Origin: Anaerolineae bacterium
GTDB taxonomy: Bacteria; Chloroflexota; Anaerolineae; S140-20
Reading direction: 5' to 3'
NCBI GenBank assembly: GCA_027021705.1
Contig: JALUTT010000056.1
Coordinates: 1 to 64,000 of the forward strand
DNA: 64,000 nucleotides
Below are positions 1 to 16,236 of this stretch, one piece after another (position 1 is the stretch's first letter; each line of letters opens with the position of its first letter). The position numbers were made by a program, and so were the translations under genes. The notes beneath the pieces were generated by a model. That model saw nothing but the letters and a program-made list of their open reading frames with translations, was not told where the DNA came from and did no database searches.

Positions 1-67
1 AATGCACGAATGAGGCGGTCCTTAATTCGTGTATTCGTGCCCCATTCGTGGACGGCTCGTCTCCCTA

Positions 68-91
68 TCTCCAAAGATATGGGTAATCACC
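68..91. repeat. 24-bp dispersed repeat copy 1 (TCTCCAAAGATATGGGTAATCACC)
   Basis: Identical 24-mer at 14906-14929 in the same orientation. Confidence 0.85.
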
Positions 92-104
92 GGAGGTCTG
101 CCGC

Positions 105-133
105 TTGTCAGCCCGGCGAACCCGGCGTACAAT
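105..133 (+). promoter_or_regulatory. sigma70-type promoter for yihY operon
   Basis: TTGTCA-17 bp-TACAAT. Confidence 0.6.
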
Positions 134-168
134 TACGAGGGGTTCGCCGATGTGGCGAATCCGTCCTT

Positions 169-218
169 GTAGGAGGGCTTCGTAGGAGGGCTTTGTAGGA
201 GGGCTTTCCAAGCCCGAC
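169..218 (+). repeat. GTAG-type REP-like element with triplicated 13-bp 5' arm
   Basis: GTAGGAGGGCTT[C/T] x3; the last copy is completed as the GTAG-GAGGGCTT-TCC-AAGCCC-GAC hairpin. Confidence 0.6.
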
Positions 219-236
219 TCTCTTTGGAGGTGGCGT

Positions 237-1343
237 GTGTTCCGGTCTGAAGAGGCAAGCGCCCGATACCGGTTGTCCCTGCACCCGGCGCTCCGGGATG
301 CGCTTCAGGTCACCCGGTGTGCGTTGAAGGCTTTTGGCGACGACAACGGCCCGCGCCTGGCGGCGGCTCTGGCCTACTACACCCTTTTCGCCCTCTTCCC
401 CTTGCTCCTGCTGCTGATCTCTCTCATCGGCTTCCTGCTGGAGGCCGGCTGGCCTATTGCCGTGAACGCCCAGGAGTACGTCTTCGACCTGGTCCGACAG
501 GCCCTGCCCCAGGCCCAGGAGTTGGTGATCAACAGCGTGAAGGCCGTCCAGGCAGCCCGGGGCAGCGTGGGCATCGTGGGGTTGGCCGCGCTCCTCTGGT
601 CAGCCTCTAACCTCTTCCACCAGCTCGACATCGCCTTGGACACCATTTGGGCGGGCCAGGCCCGGCGCTCGCTGCGGGCCACGGCCCAGCGACGACTCCT
701 CTCGATGGGGCTAGTGGTCATCGCCGGGGGACTCCTCCTGGCCTCTACAGTGGTGGACACCGTCCTGGACCTGCTCACCCGCTACACCTACCGACTGCCC
801 GGAGCCGCCCTCTTCTGGCAGGTCGTCCCTTCCATCATCTCGGCGGCGCTGGTCGCCTTCGTCTTCGGCCTCCTCTACCGCATCCTGCCGGACGTGGTGG
901 TGAGCTGGCGGCAGGTCTGGCCGGGCGCTGTGGCAGGTGGGGTGGCCTGGGAGGTGCTGAAGCAGGGCTTCAGCTTCTACGCCACCCGCGCCAACTGGAC
1001 GGCCATCTACGGCCCTGTGGCCGGCTTCATCGCCCTACTCACCTGGCTCTACCTCTCGGCCCAGGTCCTGCTCCTGGGCGCGGAGTTCTCCGCCTGTTAC
1101 ACCCGACTCCTGGAGAGCCGACGCCGGCCGGTTCCCTCCGATAGGGCGCTGTCCCCCCAACCGGAACCGTTGGCCCCGTCGGAAGCGGTCCCGGCGACGA
1201 CCGAGATCAACCGGGCCGGGTTTCGCCGAGGAACGGTGATCGGCGTGGCCGGCGCTGCCGGCCTCCTCACCGTCGCCGGCCTGGCCCTGGCCACCCGTCA
1301 CCTGCTGGGACGCCGAGGGGAGCGGAGAGGAGGGAAGCAGTGA
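237..1343 (+). CDS. YihY/virulence factor BrkB family membrane protein
   Basis: AAALAYYTLFALFP and IYGPVAGFIALLTWLY motifs, multiple TM segments, GGAGG RBS. Confidence 0.9.
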   Translation: MFRSEEASARYRLSLHPALRDALQVTRCALKAFGDDNGPRLAAALAYYTLFALFPLLLLLISLIGFLLEAGWPIAVNAQEYVFDLVRQALPQAQELVINSVKAVQAARGSVGIVGLAALLWSASNLFHQLDIALDTIWAGQARRSLRATAQRRLLSMGLVVIAGGLLLASTVVDTVLDLLTRYTYRLPGAALFWQVVPSIISAALVAFVFGLLYRILPDVVVSWRQVWPGAVAGGVAWEVLKQGFSFYATRANWTAIYGPVAGFIALLTWLYLSAQVLLLGAEFSACYTRLLESRRRPVPSDRALSPQPEPLAPSEAVPATTEINRAGFRRGTVIGVAGAAGLLTVAGLALATRHLLGRRGERRGGKQ

Positions 1344-2653
1344 GGACTGCGTCGGTCCGCCGTTTCCTCTTGCCGGTGGTCACCTTGCTCCTTGCCCTGA
1401 TCGCCCCCCGCCTGAGGCCGAGCGCGGCCCAGACCCTCGCGCCCATCCTGGTGCTGGGGCCACTGGTCCAGATGGACGCCACCGGCGGCCTGCGCATCGT
1501 CTGGTGGACGGATCGGCCCGGCAGAGCGGAGGTGCAACTGGGCGTGGATGGGGCCACCACCGTGGCGGCGGAGAGCTGGGAGCGCTGGGCAGAGGCGCCG
1601 TCCCCCTTGGACCACTTCTGGCAGCATGTTGCCCCCCTTCCCTCCCTCCCCGCCGGCACCGCCGTCCCTTACCGCCTCCTGATGGACGGGCAGGCTTTGC
1701 CCGCCGGTCCCTTCACCCTGCGCGTGCCCCCGGACCGCCCTCCCCTGCGGCTGGCCATCGTCGGCGACTACGGTTCCGGCCTGCCGGCCGAACAGGCGGT
1801 CCGCGACCTGATCGCCGCCCAGCAGCCCGACCTGATCCTCACCACCGGTGACAATGCCTACCCCCGGGGGCGTTACGAGGAGTTCCACCGCTACGTCTTC
1901 GCCGTCTACGGCGATCTGATGGCCCAGGTGCCCTTTATGCCCGCTATCGGCAACCACGACGACATCACCGGACACGCGACGCCCTACCGGGAGCTCTTCG
2001 TGCTGCCGGAGAACGGCTGGCGGCCAGAGGAGCGGGAGCGCTACTACAGCTTCGATGTGGCCAACGCCCACGTCGTGGTGCTGGACAGCACCGACGGGCT
2101 GGCGGCCATCAGCGATGCGGCGGAGGATGATATGGCCGACTGGCTGGCCGCCGACCTGGCAGCGACCGACAAACCCTGGCGCATTATCCTCTTCCATCAC
2201 CCGCCCTACTCGGCCGGCGTCCACGGCAGCCACAGCCTGGCCCGCCAGCGGCTCACACCGGTGCTGGAGGCTGGGGGCGTCCAATGGGTCTTCAACGGCC
2301 ACGAACACGACTACCAACGCACCTGCCCCATCCGCCAGGAGCGCTGCGTCGAGCCAGGGGCGGGGATCACCTACGTGATCACCGGAGGGGGTGGGGCCGG
2401 GCTACGCCCGACCGGCCAGGATTGGTTCACCCGCCGCGCCCTCAGCGTCCACCACGCCGCCTTCCTTACGCTGGACGACTGCCTGGCCCGCCTCACCGTG
2501 CGGGACCAGGAGGGCCAAGTGGTGGACCAGAACGTGGTCCTGCGGTGCCCCTTGGACTATCGTTTCTACCTGCCGTGGGTCTCCCAGGCAGCAGTGCAGA
2601 TCCGAGAGGTGCAGCAGCAAGTGCGTGACTGTCTGCTAAGCCTCTTCTCCTGA
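1340..2653 (+). CDS. exported metallophosphoesterase (purple acid phosphatase-like, N-terminal FN3-like domain)
   Basis: Signal peptide; GD, GDNAY, GNHD, HHP and GHEH metal-binding motifs. Confidence 0.9.
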   Translation: MRTASVRRFLLPVVTLLLALIAPRLRPSAAQTLAPILVLGPLVQMDATGGLRIVWWTDRPGRAEVQLGVDGATTVAAESWERWAEAPSPLDHFWQHVAPLPSLPAGTAVPYRLLMDGQALPAGPFTLRVPPDRPPLRLAIVGDYGSGLPAEQAVRDLIAAQQPDLILTTGDNAYPRGRYEEFHRYVFAVYGDLMAQVPFMPAIGNHDDITGHATPYRELFVLPENGWRPEERERYYSFDVANAHVVVLDSTDGLAAISDAAEDDMADWLAADLAATDKPWRIILFHHPPYSAGVHGSHSLARQRLTPVLEAGGVQWVFNGHEHDYQRTCPIRQERCVEPGAGITYVITGGGGAGLRPTGQDWFTRRALSVHHAAFLTLDDCLARLTVRDQEGQVVDQNVVLRCPLDYRFYLPWVSQAAVQIREVQQQVRDCLLSLFS

Positions 2654-2654
2654 G

Positions 2655-2683
2655 TTGGCAAGGTCGCCTGGAGAGGGTATAAT
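2655..2683 (+). promoter_or_regulatory. sigma70-type promoter
   Basis: TTGGCA-17 bp-TATAAT. Confidence 0.65.
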
Positions 2684-2742
2684 CCCGCTCCGTATCTCCA
2701 CCCTTGTGCCTTGTGGCGAAGCACTCTGGACAGGAGGGCGCT

Positions 2743-4044
2743 GTGAAGCCTGACCTTCCGACCATCCGCACCCACGCGACGGACCACCGGATCCTCTCCC
2801 CGGCCCGCCTCTGGCGTCTCCTCAGCGCCGCGGCCCTGGGAGGACTGGCGCTTCTGGGGATGCTGGCGCTGGCCGCCTGTCAGCGTCCTCCCCTCCTTTA
2901 CGATGTCACCCTGGCCCCAGACCGGATCACCCCCAACGCCGACGGCGATACGGACATCACCAAGATCACCTACAAACTGGGCCGCCGGGCGACCCTGTCC
3001 ATCTACTTCCTGGACGCCAAGGGGCAGCGCCACGACTTTCGCCGCAACGAGCCCCGCGCCCCCGGTGAGTACGAGGTCTACTTCGGCGGGGTGATCAACG
3101 ACCGCATGCTCCCCGACGGCACCTACACCTGGGTCATCGAGGCGGTGGATCCTCAGGGGGAGCAGGCCCAGGTCCAGGGAACCTTGGTCATCGCCGACGC
3201 CGACACCGTCTTCCCCGACATCCGAGAACTGACCGTCTATCCCCCCGTCTTCACTCCCAACCGGGACGGCCTCTCGGACCGGGCGACCATTAGCCTCTAT
3301 TTAGCCAAGGACGCGGAGCTTCAGGTCTACCTGGTGAACCCGAAGGACCCCAACCGGGTGCGCTACGCCGTGGCGGAGACGGAGGGGCTGCGGAAGCCGG
3401 GGGAGCGGGGACGCCACGAGTACGACTACGACGCGGGCGTGGACCAAGGGGCCGAACCGCCTCCCGATGGCACCTACTGGGTGGTGGCCGAGGCGGTGGA
3501 CGCGGTGGGCCAGCGAGACGTGGAGACGACGACGCTGACCATCCGAGAGGGCGGGGTTCCCAAGGCGGAGATCCTCTCTCCACCGGATGGCGACTCCGTC
3601 CGTTGGAACACCGACCACGTGCTGCTGGGCAACACCCTCTGCTTCACGGTGACCGTGGACAACTACGGGCCGGTGCCCATCCGCACCAGCGGCCCGCCGC
3701 CGGGGACGGTCTACCGGGATGATCAGAACTACAACACGCTGGGCTACGGCATCGAGGCCGGTGCATGGCGGGTGGGGATCGAGAGCGAAGCCTCCCTGAG
3801 CTCCTACCCCTACCGCTGGGCCGTGGGCGAGCCGAGCCAGTTGGTGACCCGGGTGATCAATGGGCAGGTCTACACCTACCTGCCGGCCGGAGCGCGAGGA
3901 CGGGTCTACGGCTGCATCGAGATCACCCAGGAGCCGGTGCCCAACCCTCTCTACTTCTGGGCCGGCCTGATCCACGAACGGGTGGGCATTGCCCCCATCA
4001 ACAACCACGTGGACCCGGAGTTCATCAAGATCGAGGTGCCGTGA
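2743..4044 (+). CDS. hypothetical lipoprotein with two FlgD-Ig-like repeats
   Basis: Lipobox LAAC; repeated (I/F)TPNxDG...PDGTYxWV units; AGGAGG before GTG 2743. Confidence 0.7.
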   Translation: MKPDLPTIRTHATDHRILSPARLWRLLSAAALGGLALLGMLALAACQRPPLLYDVTLAPDRITPNADGDTDITKITYKLGRRATLSIYFLDAKGQRHDFRRNEPRAPGEYEVYFGGVINDRMLPDGTYTWVIEAVDPQGEQAQVQGTLVIADADTVFPDIRELTVYPPVFTPNRDGLSDRATISLYLAKDAELQVYLVNPKDPNRVRYAVAETEGLRKPGERGRHEYDYDAGVDQGAEPPPDGTYWVVAEAVDAVGQRDVETTTLTIREGGVPKAEILSPPDGDSVRWNTDHVLLGNTLCFTVTVDNYGPVPIRTSGPPPGTVYRDDQNYNTLGYGIEAGAWRVGIESEASLSSYPYRWAVGEPSQLVTRVINGQVYTYLPAGARGRVYGCIEITQEPVPNPLYFWAGLIHERVGIAPINNHVDPEFIKIEVP

Positions 4045-5036
4045 GGACAGGGCGCTGGGAGGCGGAGGTGGACGCGCTGGACCTGGCGGTCGTCATCGTA
4101 AGCTGGAACGTGCGGGAGCGACTGCGGGCCTGCCTGCACGCGCTCCAAGCGGAGTTGGCGCGATGGGGCCGGCGTGGGGCGGTCTGGGTGGTGGACAACG
4201 GCTCCACCGATGGCACTCCGGCGATGATCCGGCAGTCCTTCCCTCAAGTCCGGTTGATCGCCAACGAGGACAACCGGGGCTTCGCAGCGGCCAACAACCA
4301 GGCCCTACGGGCGATGGGCTTCGAGGAAGAGCCTCCCGTCCCCGAACCCTCCCTTCCCCGTTACGTACTGCTGCTGAACCCAGACACGGAGGTGGAGCCG
4401 GGGGCGGTATCGGCACTGGTGGACTTTATGGACGCCCACCCTGCTGTGGGTGTGGCGGGCGTCCGCCTGAGCTACGGGGATGGCTCCTTCCAGCACAGCG
4501 CCTTCCGCTTCCCCGGCCTCTGGCAGATCGCCTTGGACCTCTTGCCCGTGCCGGGCCGCCTCTATGGGTCCCGCCTGAACGGGCGCTATCCCCGACGGCT
4601 GTACGAGGCCGGTCGCCCCTTCCCCATTGACCATCCCCTGGGGGCCGCGATGATGGTTCGCCGGGAGGCCATCCTCCAGGTGGGGCTGCTGGATGAGGGG
4701 TTTTTCCTGTACTGCGAGGAGATTGACTGGTGCTGGCGGATGCACCGGGCGGGCTGGTCGGCCTACTGCGTGCCCGAGGCGCGGGTGATCCACCACGTCG
4801 GACAGAGCGCCGGACAGGTGCGGGTGGCCTCGCTACGCCACCTGTGGCGCAGTCGGCGCCGCCTCTACGAGAAGCACTACGGTCCGCTGCGCCACCGGCT
4901 GGCCCGCTGGCTCGTGCGCCTAGGGATGGCCTGGCAGGCGCGGGCCACCTGGAGAGCGGTGAACCGAAGAGAGCTCCCGCGTCGGGAGGGGGAGGAACGA
5001 GTGCGGGCCTACCGAGAGATCGCGGCCCTCTTCTGA
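4041..5036 (+). CDS. glycosyltransferase family 2 (WbbL/rhamnosyltransferase-like)
   Basis: VVIVSWN, VVDNGSTD, NRGFAAANN, LLNPD and FFLYCEEIDW motifs; start 4041 or 4068 rather than 3765. Confidence 0.9.
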   Translation: MRTGRWEAEVDALDLAVVIVSWNVRERLRACLHALQAELARWGRRGAVWVVDNGSTDGTPAMIRQSFPQVRLIANEDNRGFAAANNQALRAMGFEEEPPVPEPSLPRYVLLLNPDTEVEPGAVSALVDFMDAHPAVGVAGVRLSYGDGSFQHSAFRFPGLWQIALDLLPVPGRLYGSRLNGRYPRRLYEAGRPFPIDHPLGAAMMVRREAILQVGLLDEGFFLYCEEIDWCWRMHRAGWSAYCVPEARVIHHVGQSAGQVRVASLRHLWRSRRRLYEKHYGPLRHRLARWLVRLGMAWQARATWRAVNRRELPRREGEERVRAYREIAALF

Positions 5037-5093
5037 ACCGCCTGTCGGTAGGGCTGTATGAAACCGAGGTTGATCTTCAAGGCCTCCGCTCAA

Positions 5094-5181
5094 ACCGCAG
5101 AGCGCGGAGGACGCCGAGGAACATCGAGAAGAACCGATAAGAAATTTCTGCGAACTCTGCGTTTCTCTGCGGCTCTGCGGT
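5094..5181. repeat. imperfect palindromic intergenic repeat (ACCGCAGAGC...GCTCTGCGGT)
   Basis: 10-bp terminal inverted repeat with internal CTCTGCG/CGCAGAG units; similar architecture at 1-55 and 31687-31741. Confidence 0.55.
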
Positions 5182-5206
5182 AAAAAGGACCACCATCCAG
5201 GGGGCA

Positions 5207-5242
5207 GGAAAAGGGAAGGGCGAGGTGTCTGGCACCTCGCCC
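5207..5242 (-). terminator. intrinsic terminator of candidate minus-strand sRNA
   Basis: GGGCGAGGTG-CCAGA-CACCTCGCCC 10-bp stem followed by TTCCCTTTT on the minus strand. Confidence 0.7.
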
Positions 5243-5454
5243 GGAAGTCGTTCCTGGTCAGTCGTGGGTTTGACTGTGCAACGGCGTCGGAGGGGGGGCT
5301 TTTTTTTTACGGACTGTTGACATTCAAACGGGTTGCAGCGGGCTATGACGGACTGCAGTGAGCTAGGATGAGCAACGATGTGAGCGACCTTGAACTGCGA
5401 TGGACTACGATGGGCTGCGACGGCAACGACGGGTCTGACCAGGAACGTCATTCT
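5207..5454 (-). ncRNA. candidate repeat-containing small RNA (~245 nt)
   Basis: Own promoter (5461-5489), 13-bp 5'/3' closing stem (5249-5261 with 5435-5447), about 12 degenerate 10-nt repeats, terminator. Confidence 0.55.
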
Positions 5455-5460
5455 GACCCT

Positions 5461-5489
5461 ATCATACCACAAAAAGCCCCCCTTGTCCG
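5461..5489 (-). promoter_or_regulatory. sigma70-type promoter with extended -10
   Basis: Minus strand CGGACA-17 bp-TATGAT with TG at -15/-14. Confidence 0.65.
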
Positions 5490-5505
5490 TAAACGGAGCG
5501 TAAAA

Positions 5506-6264
5506 ATGTCCCCAACTCCGGTCCCGGATCTGGTCGCTGTGATCCTGACCAAGGATGAGGCCCGCCACATCCAGGACTGCATCGCCAGCCTGATCTGGAC
5601 CGATGAGGTGGTCGTCTTCGATGCCTTTAGCGGGGATGCCACCGTGCCGCTGGCGCAGGAGGCGGGGGCACGGGTGATCCGGCATCCCTTCCGCAACTAC
5701 GCCCAGCAGCGCAACGCGGCCCTGGAGATGGTGGAGGCCCGGTGGATCTTCTTCGTGGATGCCGACGAGCGGGCGACGCCGGCGCTGGCCCGGGAGGTGC
5801 GCCAGGCGATCCGCCGCGCCGATGTGAACGGCTGGTGGGTGCCCCGCCACAACTACATCTTCGGGCGACTCACCCTGGGGGCCGGCTGGTGGCCCGACTA
5901 CCAGATGCGCCTCCTCCGACGGGGAAAGGCCCGTTACGAGCGGGAGGTCCACGAGATCGTCGTCCTGGAGGGCCAGGCCGGTCACCTGAAGAACCCCCTC
6001 ATCCACTACAACTACGACAGTGTGGCTCACTTCCACGCCAAACAGGATCGCTACACCGACTACGACGCCCAGGTCCTCTACCGGCAAGGAGTGCGTCCCC
6101 GGTGGTACACCCCTTACACCCAGTTCCTACGCCACTTCTGGTGGCGCTTCGTCACGCTGGGGGGCTATCGGGATGGGCTGCACGGGCTGCGGTTGAGCGG
6201 GCTGATGGCCTACTACGAGAAAGAGAAGTACCGCCGCCTGCGCCGGTTGTGGGCATTGGGGTAA
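5506..6264 (+). CDS. glycosyltransferase family 2 (WaaE/KdtX-like beta-glucosyltransferase)
   Basis: ILTKDEA, YAQQRN, FVDADE, WWPDYQMRL and VHE motifs; ATG 5506 preferred to 5368. Confidence 0.9.
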   Translation: MSPTPVPDLVAVILTKDEARHIQDCIASLIWTDEVVVFDAFSGDATVPLAQEAGARVIRHPFRNYAQQRNAALEMVEARWIFFVDADERATPALAREVRQAIRRADVNGWWVPRHNYIFGRLTLGAGWWPDYQMRLLRRGKARYEREVHEIVVLEGQAGHLKNPLIHYNYDSVAHFHAKQDRYTDYDAQVLYRQGVRPRWYTPYTQFLRHFWWRFVTLGGYRDGLHGLRLSGLMAYYEKEKYRRLRRLWALG

Positions 6265-6271
6265 ATTCCCC

Positions 6272-6300
6272 TTGACAAAGGCGAAAAGATGGTGTATGAT
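6272..6300 (+). promoter_or_regulatory. sigma70-type promoter of LacI/ABC operon
   Basis: TTGACA-17 bp-TATGAT. Confidence 0.85.
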
Positions 6301-6311
6301 AGAGGCGATTT

Positions 6312-6325
6312 TGGGAGCGCTCCCA
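6312..6325. promoter_or_regulatory. LacI-family operator O1 (TGGGAGCGCTCCCA, CelR/CebR box)
   Basis: Perfect palindrome, extendable to 20 bp (6309-6328), just downstream of the predicted start site. Confidence 0.9.
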
Positions 6326-6405
6326 AAACCACCCGCCCTTCGTTGGGGTTTCGGGGGGTTTTCGGGGGCATTTGAGGCGAAAATCGCTTTTTTTCAGGTC
6401 TGAGT

Positions 6406-6419
6406 TGGGAGCGCTCCCA
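6406..6419. promoter_or_regulatory. LacI-family operator O2 (TGGGAGCGCTCCCA)
   Basis: Second perfect copy abutting the AGGAGG RBS of the regulator. Confidence 0.9.
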
Positions 6420-6432
6420 ACAGGAGGTCCCT

Positions 6433-7461
6433 ATGACACACACCCTGGAAGAGATCGCCAAGCTGGCCGGCGTCTCCCGCTCCACCGTCTCTCGCGTCAT
6501 CAACGATCACCCCAACGTCCGGCCCGAGGTGCGCGAGCGCGTCTGGCAGGTGATTCGGGAGGTGGGTTACCAGCCCCACGCCGCCGCCCGCAGCCTCGCC
6601 ACCAACCGCACCCAGGTGCTGGGGCTCATCATCCCCCAGGCCGTGACCACCCTCTTCACCGACCCCTTCTTCCCCCACCTCATCCAGGGCATGGCCGAGG
6701 CCTGCAACGCCCATCGCTACCACCTGATGCTCTCCCTCTTCACCGGGCGGACCGACCAGGAGAGCCTCTACCGTCGGGTGTTGCGCAGCGGCACGCTGGA
6801 CGGTGTGGTCGTGGCCTCGACGACGCTGGACGACCCCCTCATCCCCCGCCTGCTCCAGGAAAAGCTCCCCTTCGTCTCGGTGGGCCGTCACCGGGAGGCG
6901 GCGGTGAGTTACGTGGATGTGGACAACGTGGCCGGCGCCCGCCAGGCCGTGGAGCACCTGCTGCGCCAGGGCCACCGCCGGATCGCCACGGTGACCGGTC
7001 CGCTGGCGATGATGGCAGGCCGGGACCGGCTGGAGGGCTACCGCCAGGCCCTGGAGGCGCGGGGGGTGCCCGTGGACGATGCGCTCATCGCCGAGGGCGA
7101 CTTTACCGAGGAGGGGGGGCGGATGGCGATGCAGCGGCTATTGCCCCACCGACCCACGGCCGTCTTCGTCGCCAGCGACACGATGGCCGTCGGCGCGATG
7201 AAGGCGATCAAGGAGGCCGGGCTGCGCATCCCCGAGGATGTGGCCGTGGTCGGGTTTGATGACCTACCCGTTGCCTCCATCGTTGAGCCGGCGCTGACCA
7301 CCGTCCGCCAGCCTATCGAGCGGTTGGGGGCCACGGCGGTGGAAGTGCTGATCGGCCTGATCGAGCAGCAAGCCGAAGCGCCTCAGCACGTCATCCTGCC
7401 TACCCAGCTGGTCATCCGGGCCTCGTGCGGAGCGCTGAGCGGCTCCAGGGGCCTGGAATAA
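6433..7461 (+). CDS. LacI-family transcriptional regulator
   Basis: N-terminal [42 protein letters not shown]. Confidence 0.97.
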
Positions 7462-7609
7462 GGACGGCCCCCGACCCGAGAAGCCGGCCCTCCCGCTGAT
7501 TGTCAGGAGCCCTTCGCCCCGGCAAGACCGTGCACCGCCGGAGCGCACGCCAAGTACACCCGTTTACCGGTCTCGAGTTCGTGAGAACCTTGCAAAGGAG
7601 GGAGTCACG

Positions 7610-9073
7610 ATGAAACCACGGTGGTTGGTCCTGCTCAGCCTGGTGACGATCCTCGGGATGCTGGCGACTGCCTGCGGCAGCGCGACCCCTGAGGTCGTCG
7701 AGAAGACGGTCGTGGTGACCAAGGAGGTGGTCAAGGAGGTCCAGGTCACCAAGATCGTCCAGGGGAAGACGGTGACGGAGATCGTCACGGCCACACCGCC
7801 CCCGCCGGAGGAAGTCACCCTGAAGATCTGGATCATGCCCAACGGCCCAGACCCGTTGGGGGCCATCCAGACGGAGATTGACGAGTTCGAGAAGCTGCAC
7901 CCCAACATCCGCATTGAGGCGGAGGTACTGGACTGGGGTTCGGCCTGGAGCAAGATCACCACGGCGGCCACCAGCGGCGAGGGGCCGGACATCTCCCAGC
8001 TCGGCACCACCTGGGTGGCGGCCATCGCCGCGATGGGGGCGCTGCGTCCCTTCACCGCCGAGGAGATCGCGGCGATGGGCGGGGCGGAGAACTTCGTCGA
8101 GGCCTCTTGGCAGACCTGCAACCCGGTGGGCAGCGGCTTCACCGTCGCCGTCCCCTGGTTCGTGGACACCCGGGCCATCATCTACCGCAAGGATGTGCTG
8201 GAGAAGGTGGGGCTGGACCCGGATGAAGCCTTCGCCACCTGGGACACCTTCGACGCCGCCCTGGCCCGCATCAAAGAAGCCAAGGAGGCGGGCGAGGTGG
8301 AGACCTATCCCATTGGCTTCCCCGGCAAGAACGACTGGAACGTGCTGCATAACTTCGCCCCCTGGGTCTGGGGAGCCGGCGGGGAGATGCTGAACCCGGG
8401 CAACACGGCGGCCGTCTTCAACAGCCCCGAGGCCATCGAAGGCTTCAAATTCTACGCCAGCCTCTTCACCAAGGGCTACACCCCGCCCGACGTGCTGGAG
8501 CTGAACAGCGCCCAGGTGGATGGGATGTTCCCCTCGGGTGAGGTGGCGATGATCATCTCCGGCCCCTGGATGGTGAAGAACAGCCGCACGCCGGAGGATA
8601 AGGGCGGGTTCGCCGGAAGTGTGGCGGCGGAGAACTTCGCCGTGCACGAGATCCCGGCGGGGCCGGCGGGCCGCTTCACCTTCGTCGGCGGCTCCGACCT
8701 CACCGTCTGGAACAGCAGCAAGCACCAGGAGGAGGCCGTCGAGTTCGTCAAGTTCCTGGTCAGCAAGGAGTCCCAGATCCGCTACGGCGGCAACATCGGC
8801 ATGCTCCCGGCGGTCAAGGAGGCGCTGGCCGATCCCACCTTCAAGGACGACCCCGACTACGGCGTCTTCGTCCAAGCGGTGGGGCACGGCAAGTCCTACC
8901 CGGCCATCGCTGCCTGGGGGCCCATCGAGAGCGCGATGGTGAAGAACCTGGGGGCGCTGTGGGACGATGTGGCCGGCGTCAACGGCCCCTTCGACCCCGA
9001 CACGATGATCCCGGCCCGCCTGGACGCGGCCAAGCAGGAGGTGGACGCGCTGCTGGCCGCCGGTGGCGGCTAG
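7610..9073 (+). CDS. sugar ABC transporter substrate-binding lipoprotein
   Basis: Lipobox LATAC, V/K/E/T-rich linker, GPDISQLGTTW, family-1 SBP features. Confidence 0.93.
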   Translation: MKPRWLVLLSLVTILGMLATACGSATPEVVEKTVVVTKEVVKEVQVTKIVQGKTVTEIVTATPPPPEEVTLKIWIMPNGPDPLGAIQTEIDEFEKLHPNIRIEAEVLDWGSAWSKITTAATSGEGPDISQLGTTWVAAIAAMGALRPFTAEEIAAMGGAENFVEASWQTCNPVGSGFTVAVPWFVDTRAIIYRKDVLEKVGLDPDEAFATWDTFDAALARIKEAKEAGEVETYPIGFPGKNDWNVLHNFAPWVWGAGGEMLNPGNTAAVFNSPEAIEGFKFYASLFTKGYTPPDVLELNSAQVDGMFPSGEVAMIISGPWMVKNSRTPEDKGGFAGSVAAENFAVHEIPAGPAGRFTFVGGSDLTVWNSSKHQEEAVEFVKFLVSKESQIRYGGNIGMLPAVKEALADPTFKDDPDYGVFVQAVGHGKSYPAIAAWGPIESAMVKNLGALWDDVAGVNGPFDPDTMIPARLDAAKQEVDALLAAGGG

Positions 9074-9149
9074 AGGAGAGGCCACGGGAGGGGGATGGGG
9101 GCCGACGCCGGCCCCCATCCTCACCTCTCCGTCGGCGGGAGGGAGGACG

Positions 9150-10112
9150 ATGGCCACCTCAACCTGGAGGCCAGCCCGACGCAATGGGTTGTGGCAGCGC
9201 ATCCGCAAGCACCGCTTCGCCTACCTGCTGACCGCGCCCACGGCGCTGGCGATGCTCGGTGTGCACTTCATCCCCACGCTGCTCGCCTTCTACATGTCCT
9301 TCCTGCGGCTCAACCAGTTCACGCTGGGGCGTTTCCTGCGGGCTCCCTTCGTCGGGCTGGCCAACTACGCGCTGATCTTCTCCTCGCGCAACAACGCCCT
9401 GGTGGCCGGCATCAACAACGCCGCCCGCAACACCCTCATCTACGCCGTGGCCGTCAACGTCGGGACCCTGGGGATCGGAATCGTCCTGGCCCTGCTGCTC
9501 AACCGCCGTTTCCGGGGGCGCGGGATCGCCCGCACGCTGATGCTGCTCCCTTGGGTCGTCCCCACCTACGTCGTCGGCATGCTCTGGGGGATGATGTGGC
9601 TGCGGGACCGGGGGATCATCAACACCATCCTGGTGGACTGGCTGCACCTGCTCTCCCAGAAGCCCTTCTGGCTCATCGGGCGCAACACCCTCTGGGCCAT
9701 CATCATCCCCACCATCTGGCGGCAGCTCCCCTTCAACACGATCATGCTCCTCTCCGGCCTGCAGATGGTCCCCGAGGACCTCTACGACGCCTCGGCCATT
9801 GACGGCGCGTCCGCCTGGCAGCAGTTCTGGTACATCACCCTGCCCCTCCTCAAGCCCGTCGTCGCCATCGTGCTGCTATGGGGGGCGATCTTCACCTTCT
9901 TCGGCTACAACATCGTCATCATGATGTTCGGCAACGGGGGCGGCTTCCCCGGCGAGTGGGGTGACCTGCTGATGCCGGCCATCCAGCGCCAGTCCTTCGG
10001 CTACTGGATGTTCGGCCTGGGCTCCGCCGTCTCCATCCTGATGATGCTGGTGATGATGCTCTTCGTCGGGATCTGGTACCGCGTCTTCCGGGTCTCCCTG
10101 ATCCAGGAGTGA
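9150..10112 (+). CDS. carbohydrate ABC transporter permease
   Basis: FVGLANY, LYDASAIDGA (EAA loop), ITLPLLKP; GGAGG before ATG 9150. Confidence 0.93.
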   Translation: MATSTWRPARRNGLWQRIRKHRFAYLLTAPTALAMLGVHFIPTLLAFYMSFLRLNQFTLGRFLRAPFVGLANYALIFSSRNNALVAGINNAARNTLIYAVAVNVGTLGIGIVLALLLNRRFRGRGIARTLMLLPWVVPTYVVGMLWGMMWLRDRGIINTILVDWLHLLSQKPFWLIGRNTLWAIIIPTIWRQLPFNTIMLLSGLQMVPEDLYDASAIDGASAWQQFWYITLPLLKPVVAIVLLWGAIFTFFGYNIVIMMFGNGGGFPGEWGDLLMPAIQRQSFGYWMFGLGSAVSILMMLVMMLFVGIWYRVFRVSLIQE

Positions 10113-10115
10113 GAG

Positions 10116-10979
10116 GTGATGATGGACTGGCAACGTCTGGGGCCTCGCCTGCGGCGCTTCCTTGCCCACCGCTTCGCCGACCTGCTGTTGATCGCGCTCC
10201 TGGTGCTCATCCTCTTCCCCATCTTCTGGATGTTCGTCTCCTCGTTCAAGACCAACCAGGAGATCTTGGAGAGCCGGACGGTCCTGCCGTCGCGGTGGCA
10301 GTTGCGCAACTACGTGGACCTGTGGGAGCAGGTCAACTTTGGCCTCTACTTCAGGAACAGCCTCATCGTCTGCGGGACGACGATGATCGTGGTCACGCTG
10401 CTGGCCACCTTCTCCGGCTACGCCCTGGCCCGTTTTCGCTTTCCCGGCGCCGATGCCTTTGGGATGGCCGTCCTGGCGACCCAGTTGATCCCCGGCATCC
10501 TCTTCCTGCTTCCCCTCTACCAGATCTTCGTCTTCGTCAAGAACAGGCTGGGGGTGCCGCTGATCGGCACGAACCTGGGGGCCATCATCCTCTACATCGC
10601 CTTCTTCCTCCCCCTGAGCCTCTGGATCTTACGCAGCTTCTTCGCCTCCATCCCTCGAGAGCTGGAGGAGGCCGCCCTGATAGACGGCTGTACCCCCTTC
10701 GGGGCCTTCTGGCGGGTGGCGCTGCCCCTGGCCGCGCCGGGCATCGTGGCCACGGCCATCTACGTCTTCCTCACCGCCTGGGACGAACTGCTCTTCGCCT
10801 GGGTGCTGAACGTGAAGACGATCCCCGTGGGCATCCGCCTCTACGTGGGGCAGTACGTCAACCGCTTCGACCTGATGATGGCCGCCTCGGTGGTGGTCAC
10901 GCTGCCGGTGCTGATCACCTTCTTCCTGATGCAGCGGCAGATGATCAGCGGGCTGACCGCCGGCGCGGTGAAGGAGTGA
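10116..10979 (+). CDS. carbohydrate ABC transporter permease
   Basis: IPRELEEAALIDG EAA loop, C-terminal GLTAGAVKE. Confidence 0.95.
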   Translation: MMMDWQRLGPRLRRFLAHRFADLLLIALLVLILFPIFWMFVSSFKTNQEILESRTVLPSRWQLRNYVDLWEQVNFGLYFRNSLIVCGTTMIVVTLLATFSGYALARFRFPGADAFGMAVLATQLIPGILFLLPLYQIFVFVKNRLGVPLIGTNLGAIILYIAFFLPLSLWILRSFFASIPRELEEAALIDGCTPFGAFWRVALPLAAPGIVATAIYVFLTAWDELLFAWVLNVKTIPVGIRLYVGQYVNRFDLMMAASVVVTLPVLITFFLMQRQMISGLTAGAVKE

Positions 10980-11025
10980 GGCCGGGGGCCGGACCGGGGG
11001 ATTTCCGGGGCGGCGTTGGCCCCTG

Positions 11026-11054
11026 TTGGCCCTTTTCCCCCCCGGATGTATAAT
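11026..11054 (+). promoter_or_regulatory. internal sigma70-type promoter for AAA ATPase gene
   Basis: TTGGCC-17 bp-TATAAT, followed by inverted repeat GTGTCTGCTG/CAGCAGACAC (11055-11085). Confidence 0.6.
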
Positions 11055-11104
11055 GTGTCTGCTGCGTAACCTACTCAGCAGACACTACTCAGGGGAGGGG
11101 AGAC

Positions 11105-12511
11105 GTGGACTTCGTTGACCGAGAGCGCGAACTGGCTGCCCTGGAGCAGCTGTGGATCGAGGCCGAACGGGAGGCCCAGTTGGTCGTCGTCTACGGCCGG
11201 CGCCGTATTGGGAAGACGGCGTTGCTCCGACGCTTCACCCAGGGCAAGCCGACGGTCTTCTGGACGGCGGAGAGGACTTCAGCGGCCCGTCTGTTAGGTG
11301 GACTCTCCCGGGCGCTCTGGCGCTACGCCCACCCCGACCTCCCGCCCGAAGCGGACTTTACCTTCGCCTCCTGGGAACAGGCCCTCCAGTACGCCGCTCA
11401 GTTGGCCCGGAAACAACGCCTGGCCCTTATCATAGACGAGTTCCCCTATGCCGCCGAGGCGGTGCCGGCCTTGCCCTCCCTACTCCAGCGGCTGTGGGAT
11501 GAGACGTTGGCCCGGACCCACCTCTTCCTGGTGTTGTGCGGCAGTTCCATCAGTATGATGGAGCAGCAGGTGCTGGGATACCGGGCCCCGTTGTACGGAC
11601 GGCGCACCGGTCAACTCCTCCTGCGTCCGCTGACCTTCGCCGACGCACGACGCTTCTTCCCGGCCTACAGCCCTGTCCAGCAGGTCACGGCCTGGGCTAT
11701 CCTGGGCGGGATGCCCGCCTACCTGCGCCAGTTCTCCGACCGCCGTCCGATTATGGTCAACATCCGGGAGCGGATCTTGGAGCCCTCTTCGTTCCTGTAC
11801 TACGAACCCCGCTTCTTGGTCTACGCCGAGCTCCGGGAGCCCCGCACGTCGCTGGCCATCCTGGAGGCTCTTGCCACCGGTCACCACCGCCCTTCCGACA
11901 TCGCCCGGGTGACGGGGCTGGAGCGGGGGCTGGTGAGCCGCACGCTTTCCACCTTGCGCGACCTGCACCTGGTGGAACGGGAGGTCCCGGTGACGGAGCC
12001 CTACCCCCACAAGAGCCGTAAGGGACGCTATCGGATCAGCGACGCCTTCCTGCGCTTCTGGTTCCGCTTTGTGTGGCCCTTCCAGGACCGCTTGGACGTG
12101 GGAGAGACGGCGGCGGCAGAAGAGGCCCTGCGGGAGCAGTTGCCCGCCTTTGTCGGTCACGCCTTCGAGCGCCTCAGTCAGGAGTGGCTGCGACATCAGG
12201 GAGCAGCGGGCCGGCTGCCTTTCGAGCCGGATCGCATCGGCGAGTGGTGGGACCGTCAAGGGCAGGTAGATGTGGTGGCGCTGAACTGGGCGGAGCGGGT
12301 GATCTTGCTGGGAGAGGCGAAGTGGCTCAACCGCCCCGTCGGCCTTGAGGTCCTGGAGAGCCTGAAACGTCGAGGGAACAGGGCCGTCCCCGATCCATCC
12401 TGGACGGTGCATTACATCCTTTTCTCCCGCAGCGGTTTCACGACGGAGCTGCGGCGTCGGGCTGAGAGCGAGCGGCTGATGCTGGTTTCGCTGGAGGAGA
12501 TGGTCACCTGA
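11105..12511 (+). CDS. archaeal-type AAA ATPase with wHTH and C-terminal DUF234 (PD-(D/E)xK-like) domain
   Basis: FVDRERE, Walker A GRRRIGKT, Walker B IIDEFPY, YGRRTG, VDVVA...GEAKW. Confidence 0.9.
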   Translation: MDFVDRERELAALEQLWIEAEREAQLVVVYGRRRIGKTALLRRFTQGKPTVFWTAERTSAARLLGGLSRALWRYAHPDLPPEADFTFASWEQALQYAAQLARKQRLALIIDEFPYAAEAVPALPSLLQRLWDETLARTHLFLVLCGSSISMMEQQVLGYRAPLYGRRTGQLLLRPLTFADARRFFPAYSPVQQVTAWAILGGMPAYLRQFSDRRPIMVNIRERILEPSSFLYYEPRFLVYAELREPRTSLAILEALATGHHRPSDIARVTGLERGLVSRTLSTLRDLHLVEREVPVTEPYPHKSRKGRYRISDAFLRFWFRFVWPFQDRLDVGETAAAEEALREQLPAFVGHAFERLSQEWLRHQGAAGRLPFEPDRIGEWWDRQGQVDVVALNWAERVILLGEAKWLNRPVGLEVLESLKRRGNRAVPDPSWTVHYILFSRSGFTTELRRRAESERLMLVSLEEMVT

Positions 12512-14964
12512 TGCACCGAGCGCTCTGGCCTCTGCTCATCCTCGTCGTTCTCTGCACTACCTGTCACCCTACCACCAAGGAGCACCCTATGACACCGACC
12601 TCGTCCGTCCGACGGCCGGCCGGGATCCCGGCGGCCGCCTGGTCCCGCCCCATCGGCCTGCCGGTGGAACACCCCTCCCGTCCTCGCACCGACTACCCCA
12701 TCATTGACGACGGTCCCTTCCAGGGGGTCCCCCTGGGCGGGATCGGAGCCGGCACCATCGGGCGCACCTACCGGGGCGACTTCGCCCGCTGGCACCTGGA
12801 GCCCGGTCGCCACCGCTACGAGCCGCTGCCCGCCAACATGTTCTCCGTCTACATGCGCCAGGGGGATCGGACCGTCGTCCAGGCCCTGTGGACGGAAGCG
12901 CCGCGCACCTTCCTCCAAGCCTGGCGCTGGCGCTACCCCGTCGGGGCCGGCACCTACTACGCCCTCTACCCCCGTGCCTGGTTCGTCTACGACTGGGACC
13001 GCTTCCCCGCCCGCCTGACCGTCGAGCAGTTCTCGCCCATCATCCCCCACAACTACCGGGAGAGCAGCTATCCCGTCGCCCTCTTCCTGTGGACGGCGGA
13101 GAACCCCACCGATGGGCCCCTCACCCTGGGCATCCTCTTCACCTGGCAGAACCTGCTGGGGCGAGGGCAGGAGCAAGACTTCCTGGCCGGCCACGTCAAC
13201 CAGGCCCGCCGCGAGACGCTGGACGCGGGGGAGATGGTCGGCGTCCTGCTCCAGGACGGAGGTGAGGCGGTCACCGAGGGCTGGCAGGGCTCCTTCGCCA
13301 TCGCCGCCCTCCAGACGCCGGGGGTCCGGGTCACCTACCGCAGCCGCTTCCGGGTCAACGGGGATGGGGCGGAGCTCTGGGGCGACTTCGCCGCCGACGG
13401 CCGGCTGGACGACCGGGACGACGCCACCCCTTCGACGATGGGCGAGATCATCGGCGCCGGCATCGCCGTCACCTTCAACCTGGCTCCCGGCGAGCGCCGA
13501 CAGGTTCCCATCGTCCTGGCCTGGGACCTACCCATCGCCCAGTTTGGGGAGGGGGATCGCTGGTACCGGCGCTACACCGCCTTCTTCGGCGTCTCCGGGC
13601 GCAACGCCTGGGCCATCGCCCGGGAGGGGCTGACGCGCTACGCCGACTGGCGGGAGCAGATCATCGCCTGGCAACAGCCCATCCTGGAGGACCCCGCCCG
13701 CCCCGACTGGTACAAGCAGGCCCTCTTCAACGAGCTCTACTTCATCGCCGACGGGGCGACGGCCTGGGTGACCGGCCCGGTGGACGGCACGCCGGACGAC
13801 CCCGCCGAGATGGGCCACTTCGCCCAGATCGAGTGCTACGACTACCCCTACTACGAGACGCTGGACGTCCGCTTCTACGGCTCCTTCCCCCTGCTGATGC
13901 TCTGGCCGGCGCTGGAGAAGCAGGTGATGCGGGACTTCATCCCCACGGTGCAGCAGACCGACCCGACGCTGCGCCGCATCGTCAGCAACGGGGCTCAGGC
14001 CCCCCGCAAGGTGGCCGGTGCCGTCCCCCACGACCTGGGGATGCCCTCCGAAGCCCCCTGGCGGCGGACCAACGCCTACGACTTCCAGGATGCGAACCTC
14101 TGGAAGGACCTGAACAGCAAGTTTGTCCTGCTTCTCTACCGGGATTACCGAGCGACGGGGGATCGGTCGCTGGTGGAGGCGGGGTGGCCGGCCGTCCAGG
14201 TGGCGCTGGACTACCTGAAGGGCTTCGACCGGGATGGGGATGGGCTGCCGGAGAACGACGGGCTGCCCGACCAGACCTACGACACCTGGCCGATGCGCGG
14301 GGCCAGCGCCTACTGCGGCGGCCTCTGGATGGCGGCGTTGGAGGCGGCGGTGGAGATGGCCCGGCTGGTGGGGGACGAGACAGCGGCCCGCCGGTACGCC
14401 GGCTGGCTGGCCCAGGCCCAGGCCAGCTATGAGGCCAAGCTGTGGAATGGGCGCTACTACGACTACGACACCGACGGCTCCCACCGCGACAGCCTGATGG
14501 CCGATCAGTTGGCCGGTCAGTGGTACGCCGACCTCTGCGGGCTTCCCCCCGTCGTGCCCGACGACCACGTGCGCTCCGCCCTGGAGGCCATCTACCAGGC
14601 CAACGTGCTGGGCTTCGCCGGGGGGCAGATGGGGGCCGTCAACGGCACCCGGCCCGACGGCTCTGTGGACCGCAGCGCCGACCAAGCCGAGGAGGTGTGG
14701 ACAGGGGTGACCTACGGCCTGGCCGCCTTCCTGCTTCAGCGAGGGATGGAGGAGGCCGCCTGGCGGACCGCCTGGGGGGTCTACCGCGTGACCTACGAGA
14801 CGGGCGGGCTCTGGTTCCGCACGCCGGAGGCCTGGGATGAGCAGGGGCGCTTCCGGGCCTCGATGTACATGCGCCCGGGCGCAATCTGGGCAATGGAATG
14901 GGCACTCTCCAAAGATATGGGTAATCACCACTTCTCTGAGCCATTGCCACCCCCTGCAATTTGA
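12511..14964 (+). CDS. glycoside hydrolase family 116 beta-glucosidase
   Basis: GVPLGGIGAG, ECYDYPYYETLDVRFYGS (nucleophile region), PDQTYDTW (acid/base region), FRTPEA; alternative start 12589. Confidence 0.93.
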   Translation: MHRALWPLLILVVLCTTCHPTTKEHPMTPTSSVRRPAGIPAAAWSRPIGLPVEHPSRPRTDYPIIDDGPFQGVPLGGIGAGTIGRTYRGDFARWHLEPGRHRYEPLPANMFSVYMRQGDRTVVQALWTEAPRTFLQAWRWRYPVGAGTYYALYPRAWFVYDWDRFPARLTVEQFSPIIPHNYRESSYPVALFLWTAENPTDGPLTLGILFTWQNLLGRGQEQDFLAGHVNQARRETLDAGEMVGVLLQDGGEAVTEGWQGSFAIAALQTPGVRVTYRSRFRVNGDGAELWGDFAADGRLDDRDDATPSTMGEIIGAGIAVTFNLAPGERRQVPIVLAWDLPIAQFGEGDRWYRRYTAFFGVSGRNAWAIAREGLTRYADWREQIIAWQQPILEDPARPDWYKQALFNELYFIADGATAWVTGPVDGTPDDPAEMGHFAQIECYDYPYYETLDVRFYGSFPLLMLWPALEKQVMRDFIPTVQQTDPTLRRIVSNGAQAPRKVAGAVPHDLGMPSEAPWRRTNAYDFQDANLWKDLNSKFVLLLYRDYRATGDRSLVEAGWPAVQVALDYLKGFDRDGDGLPENDGLPDQTYDTWPMRGASAYCGGLWMAALEAAVEMARLVGDETAARRYAGWLAQAQASYEAKLWNGRYYDYDTDGSHRDSLMADQLAGQWYADLCGLPPVVPDDHVRSALEAIYQANVLGFAGGQMGAVNGTRPDGSVDRSADQAEEVWTGVTYGLAAFLLQRGMEEAAWRTAWGVYRVTYETGGLWFRTPEAWDEQGRFRASMYMRPGAIWAMEWALSKDMGNHHFSEPLPPPAI
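14906..14929. repeat. 24-bp dispersed repeat copy 2, inside the GH116 3' end
   Basis: Identical to 68-91. Confidence 0.85.
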
Positions 14965-14972
14965 GGTAGAAT
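14944..14972 (+). promoter_or_regulatory. sigma70-type promoter
   Basis: TTGCCA-17 bp-TAGAAT. Confidence 0.6.
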
Positions 14973-15093
14973 GTTAGAGGATGCCTTGTCTAGCGATAGA
15001 GGCTCTGCGGCCCCAACAACTGTTCGGGCAATCCGGGGGAGGACACGGCGTCCCCGGCGACCTCGAAGGGCTGAGGATTGAGCGCTGATAACC

Positions 15094-16236
15094 GTGGGGA
15101 TGGGACAACTGGGGACAGGGAGAGGGGATAAGAGGAAAGGGAGACGGATCAGCCGGCGCCGTTTTCTCCGCGAGGCAGCGGCCGCGGCGGCATGGCTGGT
15201 GACGGCCAGCCTACGGAGCAGTCCCCTGGACGCCCAACCCCCTCCTCCCTCCCCCCACACCGTCCAACCCCCCGACGAGTACCGGAGCTTCCTCCCCTAC
15301 GTGGCCCGGCCCAAGATGCCCCACGGCCCTTCCAAGCTGGGTGTCCACACCATCCGCCCCGATGGAGCGATGGACTTGATCCAGCGGGTCAGCGAGGCCG
15401 GCGGCCACGTTGCCCTGGTCAAGGGACTGGACAACCTGGGCCATCTGCGGGAGGTCAAGGAGGTCTCCCCCCAAACGGTACGGATAGCTCGCTGGAACGA
15501 CCCCTGGTGGAGCGGGATTGAGGCGGAAGGGGACCCGGCCGAGAAGGCGCGAGAACGGATGGACTGGCATATGGGCCGATGGGAGTCCGATCGAGAGTGG
15601 GTGGACTACTGGGAAGTGCTCAACGAGCCGGACCCACCGTCGGTAGACGGCCATCGCTGGCTGGCCGACTTCTACATCGCCTGCATGGAGATCGCCGAGG
15701 AGAACGGCTACAAGCTGGCCCTCTTCTCCTACAGCGTGGGGGTGCCCGAGTGGGAGGAGTGGGAGGCGATCGTGCAGACAGGGGTCTTCGCACAGGCCAA
15801 GGCGGGCGGCCACATCCTGGCGCTGCACGAGTACAACTGGCCCCATATGGACGAGCGGTGGGGTGAGCCGCTGCCCGGGCGCACCCTGGGGCTGGACCGA
15901 GGGGTGCTTACCGGGCGCTACCGCTACCTCTACGAAGACTTCCTGATCCCCCGTGACGAGGTGATCCCCCTGGCCATCACCGAAGGGGGATACGATCCTT
16001 CGGTGGTCGGTCAGGGCTGGGATGAGAACTGGAAGGAGCGCTTCGTCCCCGAGATGGCCTGGTACGACGGCAAGCTGCGGGAGGACGACTACGTCCTGGG
16101 CTGCGCCCTCTTCACCCTGGGGGGCGTAGGCATCTGGCGAGACTGGGATTACAGCGATCTGCTGGACGAACTGGGGGATTACATCATCTCCCTCAAGGAT
16201 CAGCCCGACGAAGACGAGGACGACGAGGAAGACTAA
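15094..16236 (+). CDS. Tat-exported clan GH-A-like glycoside hydrolase/hypothetical
   Basis: Tat motif SRRRFL; WEVLNEPD and LAITEGG motifs; acidic tail. Confidence 0.65.
   Translation: MGMGQLGTGRGDKRKGRRISRRRFLREAAAAAAWLVTASLRSSPLDAQPPPPSPHTVQPPDEYRSFLPYVARPKMPHGPSKLGVHTIRPDGAMDLIQRVSEAGGHVALVKGLDNLGHLREVKEVSPQTVRIARWNDPWWSGIEAEGDPAEKARERMDWHMGRWESDREWVDYWEVLNEPDPPSVDGHRWLADFYIACMEIAEENGYKLALFSYSVGVPEWEEWEAIVQTGVFAQAKAGGHILALHEYNWPHMDERWGEPLPGRTLGLDRGVLTGRYRYLYEDFLIPRDEVIPLAITEGGYDPSVVGQGWDENWKERFVPEMAWYDGKLREDDYVLGCALFTLGGVGIWRDWDYSDLLDELGDYIISLKDQPDEDEDDEED

Follow-up and report, generated by a model that had tools for sequence, protein, structure and literature searches.

A candidate antisense small RNA gene in the spacer between two glycosyltransferase genes of an Anaerolineae bacterium

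The locus described here raises the question of what is encoded in a spacer of 469 nucleotides (nt) (5037-5505) that separates two plus-strand GT2 glycosyltransferase genes of an Anaerolineae bacterium. The window, the whole 64,000-nt stretch of DNA that was analysed, is contig JALUTT010000056.1, or C56 of a 5.19-Mb assembly (GCA_027021705.1, here G000; 66% G+C, 183 contigs, 94.9% complete), and the stretch is present in hydrothermal-vent metagenomes; no RNA run was found to contain 4300-6700. An initial annotation had placed in this spacer, antisense to both GT2 genes, a minus-strand small RNA that soaks up an RNA-binding protein by means of decanucleotide repeats; both neighbours are indeed Pfam GT2 genes on the plus strand. 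Our analysis indicates that the unit is probably a real, structured minus-strand small RNA gene, from which an RNA of ~245 nt, from ~5454 to ~5208, would be made. The fuller statement, a small non-coding RNA gene that acts in cis on the GT2 operon, is put forward more tentatively, and the sponge mechanism is not supported.

Promoter, end-joining helix and terminator of the minus-strand unit

The framework of the unit consists of four features of the minus strand:

5461-5489, minus strand: promoter, with the -35 element CGGACA (5489-5484), a 17-nt spacer and the extended -10 element TGTGGTATGAT (5471-5461)
5435-5447, minus strand: 5' arm of the end-joining helix, CGUUCCUGGUCAG, which begins at about +8
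5249-5261, minus strand: 3' arm of the end-joining helix, CUGACCAGGAACG, which ends 6 nt ahead of the terminator stem
5208-5242, minus strand: intrinsic-terminator-like hairpin, with a stem at 5242-5218 of 10 base pairs (bp), 8 of them G-C, a loop of 5 and a U-rich tail, TTCCCTTTTC, that runs to ~5208

The site at 5489-5461 had been annotated as a CGGACA-17-TATGAT promoter with an extended -10 TG, and it is present as such. It is the sole promoter-like site in 4700-5900 (0.2 expected from shuffles), and among the 9 promoter-like sites in 1-20000 it alone lies on the minus strand and it alone carries the TG. The 11-mer TGTGGTATGAT fits TGTGGTATRAT, a word with 29 occurrences in the genome (reversed control, 0; mean of 40 scrambles, 0.6); since many of these sites precede ribosome-site-like words, the word can be regarded as the organism's extended -10 consensus. 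Transcription would accordingly be placed as starting near 5454.

The two arms of the predicted helix are complementary at 13 of 13 positions, as the initial annotation had it, with predicted pair probabilities of 0.91-1.0, and when the two 40-nt end windows were shuffled 5000 times, pairing of at least 13 bp arose twice. The minus-strand RNA as a whole folds better than its shuffles (z -3.57, 0/200), whereas the plus strand does not (z -1.51, 10/100). The 10-bp stem and U-rich tail annotated as a terminator were also recovered, and the stem at 5242-5218 is the strongest hairpin match in 20 kb.

No Rfam family matched 4700-5900 at E <= 10, and the model for 6S RNA (RF00013) was likewise without a match. 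The genome's 6S RNA lies elsewhere (C108:38164-38342, 84 bits), and the view of the RNA as undescribed is supported. The overlapping MTFLVRP frame (ATG 5451) is open for 124 codons and runs through the terminator hairpin, but it has no Pfam family, and its codon log-likelihood ratio (LLR) of -0.25 per codon and its third-position G+C content (GC3) of 0.58 are non-coding values when set against those of true genes (LLR 0.6, 5th percentile 0.09; GC3 0.87). In the relative described below, the matching frame stops after 3 codons, so that the coding alternative named in the annotation finds no support.

Comparative evidence comes from G001, a member of another genus of the same family (63% protein identity) whose GT2-GT2 gap is ~215 nt. 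Beside its GT2 start stands a promoter with the -35 block TTTACGGACAA, the same 17-nt spacing and an identical TGTGnTATGnT, while the letters of the promoter spacer differ. Of 401 genomes of the class that were searched, only G000 and G001 contain the promoter pattern, in a single copy each; the remaining 399 lack it. The local alignment of G000 with G001 over 5484-5508 scores 35 (shuffle maximum 24, 0/300), and this block is best described from the opposite strand:

5484-5508, plus strand: conserved block shared by G000 and G001, immediately ahead of the GT2 start codon, TTGTCCGTAAA ... GCGTAAAAATG, comprising the opposite-strand -35 element and a GGAG ribosome site (5495-5498)

An end helix is also present in G001, where 12 bp join about +10 to a stretch 10 nt ahead of the terminator (20/5000 shuffles). 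In the register in which 8 of 13 letters per arm are alike, 7 pairs are unchanged, 1 has become G.U, 4 still pair after a change in both letters, and the end pair is broken; the probability that a random partner would leave 4 or more of the 5 changed positions paired is p = 0.047. The G001 terminator is a 14-bp hairpin with a minus-strand T tail, directly after the upstream gene. The sole mismatch in the G001 helix, and likewise that in its terminator, becomes G.U in minus-strand RNA and A.C in plus-strand RNA (chance 0.25), an asymmetry that is weak evidence in the same direction. Promoter, helix and minus-oriented terminator are thus kept in another genus and a coding signal is missing, which supports the annotated minus-strand small RNA gene.

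The interiors of the two units (212 nt in G000, 145 nt in G001) are unrelated, with a local score of 14 that 438 of 500 shuffles equalled or exceeded, and the G001 unit contains no decamer array. Its interior does hold unpaired A-run/C-run tracts, and no alignment supports their homology to the tract of G000. A search of the G001 unit against Rfam returned nothing beyond chance-level rows. By DNA similarity, no homologue was found in 60 relatives or in the order's 3 other genomes, and no paralogue in the organism's own genome, where the unit is single-copy. The homologue comparison that the initial annotation had suggested therefore came out in two ways, with four compensatory changes in the helix and no conservation of the repeats.

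Variation among strains was followed over 4300-6306, where the window was compared with a strain from two runs of another study. The strain differs at 18 sites, of which 16 fall in the two genes and 15 of those 16 at third codon positions (3.0% of those sites). The spacer holds 2 differences against 14.1 expected (P 9e-5), the predicted RNA 0 against 7.4 (P 6e-4) and the array within it 0 against 3.2 (P 0.04); the copy number of the array is the same in the compared strains. Further downstream, the non-coding stretch 6332-6432, before a LacI-type gene, shows 9 differences in ~100 nt in run X3 and a 1-nt insertion in run X2, and the contigs of both runs break there.

Sequences resembling the promoter were observed at several other places. 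At 10 of the 29 TGTGGTATRAT sites (for example C7:149, C55:155 and C153:155) a repeat ending in AAACTCGTGACGGTCGC lies ~28-30 nt upstream, often at contig ends. Four near-identical promoter-like blocks of the GATGTTACAAT type (C16:8850-9200; C37, minus strand, ~41900; C67:44750-45000; C139:25330-25700) each stand ahead of 200-300 nt of mixed word arrays. After these, at least two of the loci carry the block a second time and then a multi-copy open frame, an arrangement that suggests insertion of the arrays within a duplicated promoter. Outside the genome, the promoter block is partly alike (54 nt, 80%) to the promoter of an AdoMet-decarboxylase / spermidine-synthase operon near a DUF2298 gene in G060 (L013, 1490-1660). 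We rejected this match as a homologue of the RNA unit and took it as a likeness between promoters; downstream of the L013 promoter, the leader contains a terminator-like hairpin that may be an attenuator. The promoter-block pattern was also met in at least 120 stretches of unrelated phyla, which we attribute to chance, and none of the 80 retrieved adjoins a relative of the GT2 genes.

Placement of the unit in the GT2 operon

The upstream GT2 gene ends at 5036. The start of the downstream gene was set at ATG 5506 rather than at the in-frame upstream ATG 5368, because the Pfam match sets in only at residue 58 of the long frame and the codon usage of the N-terminal extension is that of non-coding sequence. 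The three-gene cluster (CHU_C-like, GT2, GT2, all on the plus strand) is widespread, with 80 metagenome loci in which the downstream GT2 is 59-70% identical. Both GT2 genes could be placed in 64 of these loci, and in 46 of the 64 they overlap or stand no more than 86 nt apart, for which reason the spacer of the window reads as an insertion between them. The remaining 18 gaps, that of the window's own contig included, measure at least 155 nt.

Other lineages carry other insertions at the same spot. Among the nine open reading frames from the gaps that were submitted to Pfam, eight have a family (cold-shock domain, 1; UDG, 3; 4HBT thioesterase, 2; methyladenine glycosylase, 1; KTSC, 1), and further gaps (L040, L057, L066, L081, L088 and L092) are filled, by eye, with hairpins of other short tandem words. 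A blastn comparison with the upstream regions of 67 loci, out of 80 retrieved, found no likeness of the window's spacer to the gaps of other metagenome loci.

A promoter-like site stands ahead of the cluster at 2655-2683 (scan of 1-20000), and no plus-strand promoter or terminator was found in the spacer in the scans of 4700-5900 and 1-20000. We favour action in cis because place and antisense orientation are kept while the interior varies between genera, and because the scans gave no plus-strand promoter or terminator for the spacer. By this mechanism, the RNA would pair with operon transcripts that read through the spacer, or the polymerase that makes it would collide with theirs, and the antisense action would set expression of the downstream GT2 apart from that of the upstream GT2. 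The 10-nt array looks like a species-specific expansion of the genome's simple-repeat words in a variable interior and not a conserved working part.

Several observations weigh against this proposal. The comparison rests on two genomes, G000 and G001, in an order that comprises 4; G003 has no spacer and G002 gave no match. The covariation (p = 0.047) and the two G.U pairs (chance 0.25) amount to modest evidence. Terminator-like matches overall show no enrichment over the 20 kb scanned (9 found, 7.9 expected), and the tail in G000 is moderately U-rich. The conserved promoter block also spans the 5' region of the downstream GT2 and selection on that gene could explain its conservation. A recent recombination patch could account for the low strain divergence, as 5044-5675 holds 1 difference overall and its 170 nt of coding sequence hold 0 against 1.7 expected (P 0.18). 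Action in cis is deduced from position, and in G001 the shared hairpin may stop plus-strand transcription as well, in which case the downstream gene would need another promoter, which was not found. Finally, the proposal leaves unexplained an inverted repeat that crosses the end-joining helix and is taken up below.

Two further features of the spacer adjoin the unit:

5190-5207, minus strand: second, weak terminator-like site, with 5 pairs and the tail TCCTTTTTAC
5094-5188, no strand assigned: neighbouring word-hairpin element, with arms of tandem CTCTGCGG-type words and the end GGTAAAAAGG, outside the RNA and inside the same inserted spacer

Look-alikes of the hairpin at 5094-5188 are abundant in other families of the class, for example in G059 (at least 10 places), G033 and G017 (many in each). 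At the border of this element and the terminator, contigs of run X3 break at 5193-5220 with a 28-nt overlap, a sign, perhaps, that the X3 population carries the spacer in another form.

The interior of the unit and competing explanations

The interior and the crossing repeats are made up as follows:

5327-5418, minus strand: degenerate tandem array, nine units long, each of 10 nt except one of 12, with the consensus GTAGCCCATC and weak extra units at 5428-5419 and 5326-5317
5289-5308, minus strand: A-run/C-run tract, A9 G C7 UCC, with a predicted unpaired probability of 0.95-1.0; on the plus strand, its 5293-5304 is an inverted-repeat arm
5471-5482, no strand assigned: right arm of the 12-bp inverted repeat, 12/12 with the left arm at 5293-5304, inside the promoter spacer and crossing the 13-bp helix
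5306-5314 / 5485-5493, no strand assigned: additional 9-bp inverted repeat that adjoins the 12-bp repeat

The units of the array are 71% identical to the consensus. Letters 10 nt apart match at 0.52 against 0.26 (z 5.6; lag 20, z 4.7), and the observed maximum over lags 2-33 was reached in 0 of 2000 shuffles; Tandem Repeats Finder (TRF) reports the array as fragments only, in two 2-copy rows of period 10. The ~12 decanucleotide repeats of the initial annotation are hence right in their period and too many in number, as 9 units are clear and those on the flanks are weak. Relative to the consensus the units carry 21 transitions and 5 transversions in 9 of the 10 columns, the sole invariant column being the C at position 7. 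The strain differences in run X2 show a similar bias (28 transitions, 1 transversion), and the two together fit neutral decay of a tandem duplication in the lineage. The mean unpaired probability over the array is 0.52, so that about half of it is predicted to be paired; the first half is predicted to be mostly unpaired.

The core of the array, GYAGYCC, is a word of the genome's commonest tandem heptamers. NRGTCCN units stand three or more in a row in 196 arrays of the genome, and TRF lists 775 rows with a period of 7, led by CAGTCCT (105), CGGTCCT (41) and CAGTCCG (35). Across the genome such arrays adjoin stop or start codons. We observed hundreds of intergenic arrays of 7- and 8-nt words (NRGTCCN, TTGGTCGC, CCGCTAGG), often strung together, as at C36:4846-4951, C105:2513 and C155:16781. 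These heptamer words resemble the STRR heptamers of cyanobacteria; no useful literature was found on STRR or heptamer repeats in Chloroflexi.

Arrays of period 10 are rare, and 6 loci of the genome pass the period-10 filter. Three of these, with two more, form a set of five 10-nt arrays with the unit CGCAGTTTYY (C24:22013-22210, C164:10700-10870, C164:65661, C176:2938-3145 and C108:19025) that stand upstream of a similar -10-like word, unlike the layout in the window. In these loci the array gives way to a short stretch that varies, then to AAGTCCGTAGTT, a T-run and, facing a gene, a -10-like word of the TGTGGTA type; on the window's minus strand a similar TTTGAA...CAGTCCGTA comes after the array, without a following -10. 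At C176:2678-2870, tandem repeats of ~49 nt (CAGACCATCAAAACC... units) adjoin a 10-nt array and an open frame with tyrosine-recombinase matches (C176:3739-3978). A word shared with four promoter-plus-array loci, GCGTCGGAG, was discarded as meaningless, since it occurs 113 times in the genome.

The 12-bp inverted repeat that the initial annotation saw between the RNA interior and its promoter spacer is perfect, and its arms flank 166 bp with the -10 element. Together with the 13-bp and 9-bp repeats it is arranged in the order A B C ... A' B' C', hence the three cannot all form in one nested fold. The link between interior and promoter is not kept in G001, where no such repeat was found. We also considered the 13-bp and 12-bp repeats as those of a miniature inverted-repeat transposable element (MITE), and rejected this reading of a unit that is single-copy and shows no target duplication by eye.

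A base-pairing small RNA that acts in trans is an unlikely alternative. In such an RNA, the C-rich or A/C tract (5308-5289), or the GYAGYCC words, would pair with G-rich sites in other mRNAs, and the placement between GT2 genes would be inherited synteny. An independent promoter-to-terminator unit with a protective end helix would suit this role, as would the unpaired A9-G-C7-UCC tract, the unpaired A-run/C-run tracts of the G001 interior and the unrelated free-standing genes that other lineages have inserted at the same spot. However, with interiors that share no significant similarity between G000 and G001, no seed is demonstrably kept, and Hfq (PF17209), like CsrA (PF02599), was not found in the genome at its 94.9% completeness.

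Equally doubtful is the explanation that the unit has no dedicated function, the spacer being a pile of repeat elements in which the promoter-like site and the repeats are carried along and any transcript is noise. Word repeats do pervade the genome, a word-hairpin element adjoins the unit at 5094-5188, and other such elements occur in the spacers of relatives. Such a pile would not readily account for a layout of promoter, helix and terminator that is kept in another genus with compensatory changes, for a spacer with so few strain differences, or for a unit that is single-copy.

The annotated protein sponge, in which nine C-rich decamers are held single-stranded and titrate an oligomeric RNA-binding protein, we consider improbable. 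Its premises are partly sound: there is support for the RNA gene as such, the units do recur with a period of 10, the array's first half is mostly unpaired by prediction, and the lack of strain differences in the array keeps the reading alive. The mechanism is nevertheless not supported, because the array is species-specific and missing from the G001 homologue, its core coincides with the heptamer repeat word that is most common in the genome, most differences among its units are transitions and leave no strictly kept core beyond one C, and about half of it is predicted to be paired. In addition, CsrA and Hfq were not found and the genome has no second RNA of this kind; the array could have another protein partner. 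Quite improbable, too, is a variant in which the RNA is a multivalent decoy for the genome's repeat system, its nine GYAGYCC words soaking up a single-strand-binding protein specific for the heptamer words of those arrays or pairing, 7 bp at a time, with array transcripts in the G-rich orientation. If this were true, one small RNA would tune hundreds of repeat-bearing messages (~200 intergenic heptamer arrays), and the crossing 12-bp repeat would be a feedback element.

It is very improbable that the repeats act as DNA, as sites for a regulator of the downstream GT2 or of the minus-strand promoter. A period of 10 approximates a single turn of the DNA helix, the promoter spacer contains an arm of the 12-bp repeat, and 10-nt arrays stand upstream of a similar -10-like word at five other loci; here, however, the array is downstream of the promoter, array and repeat are missing in G001, and no candidate regulator stands out. 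The LacI-type regulator encoded nearby would bind palindromes.

An invertible promoter switch, in which recombination at the 12-bp repeats would flip the -10 segment towards the downstream GT2, is highly improbable and was set aside. Perfect repeats do stand around a -10 element beside surface-sugar genes, and CGGA precedes both arms at a similar distance. Yet in three metagenome runs, with word depths of 74, 17 and 6-8, the contigs are colinear and show no strand-change joint in the spacer, although contigs drop rare variants; the repeat is missing in G001; no serine recombinase (Resolvase family) was found in the genome; and of its 9 Phage_integrase matches, some of them pieces of one frame, none is on C56.

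A leaderless mRNA for the MTFLVRP protein is scarcely credible, for although its ATG lies 2-3 nt past the predicted start in a long open frame, that frame is non-coding in its codon usage, lacks a Pfam family, crosses the terminator hairpin and is cut short in G001.

Related systems and biological meaning

The closest parallel to the favoured reading, a small RNA gene with action in cis on the GT2 operon, is GadY, a cis-encoded antisense small RNA between gadX and gadW of Escherichia coli. Both GadY and the candidate are short non-coding genes on the opposite strand of a spacer between co-oriented genes, with their own promoter and terminator; both are fully complementary to a read-through transcript, and in both position is kept more than sequence. 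The two have no relation in sequence or family, and the end-joining helix and the tandem array belong to the window's unit and not to GadY. With 6S RNA the unit shares its size, a helix that closes the 5' and 3' ends and low sequence conservation, but, as noted above, neither the RF00013 match nor the genome's 6S locus.

Sponge RNAs work through repeated short motifs: CsrB and RsmZ use GGA motifs with CsrA/RsmA, and CrcZ uses A-rich motifs with Hfq/Crc. The window's array resembles them as a repeated short motif that is in part predicted to be single-stranded. It differs in that its motif is neither GGA nor A-rich, the cognate proteins CsrA and Hfq were not found, Rfam gave no match and the repeat is not kept in the next genus. 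RsaE/RoxS are C-rich small RNAs of Firmicutes that likewise have unpaired C-rich tracts and end with an intrinsic terminator; here there is no family relation, and no conserved C-rich motif is demonstrated between G000 and G001. The C-rich array was also considered as a possible Rho-loading site, Rho being present in the genome, and this reading was set aside.

Cyanobacterial STRR heptamers and the long simple-sequence repeats of prokaryotes are kindred kinds of array. TAACTGA heptamer repeats are described as intergenic tandem arrays in Beggiatoaceae and cyanobacteria (MacGregor 2015, PMC4679880). The array in the window is comparable in that it is non-coding and has a GYAGYCC core that is among the words of hundreds of this genome's intergenic arrays. 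It differs from heptamer arrays in its period of 10 rather than 7, in its position inside a promoter-to-terminator unit and in a copy number that is constant in the compared strains.

To our knowledge, the regulatory RNAs of Chloroflexota are almost unknown. The unit would add to them a small RNA gene without an Rfam family, for which a conserved promoter and a covarying helix speak, from an order that is poorly sampled and consists of metagenome-assembled genomes only. It sits in a widely conserved glycosyltransferase cluster into which other lineages inserted unrelated genes. Simple repeats that grow inside an RNA gene can mimic a designed array of motifs, which calls for caution where sponge RNAs are called from sequence. 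If the RNA does control the downstream transferase, it would offer a handle on how the synthesis of surface sugars is tuned.

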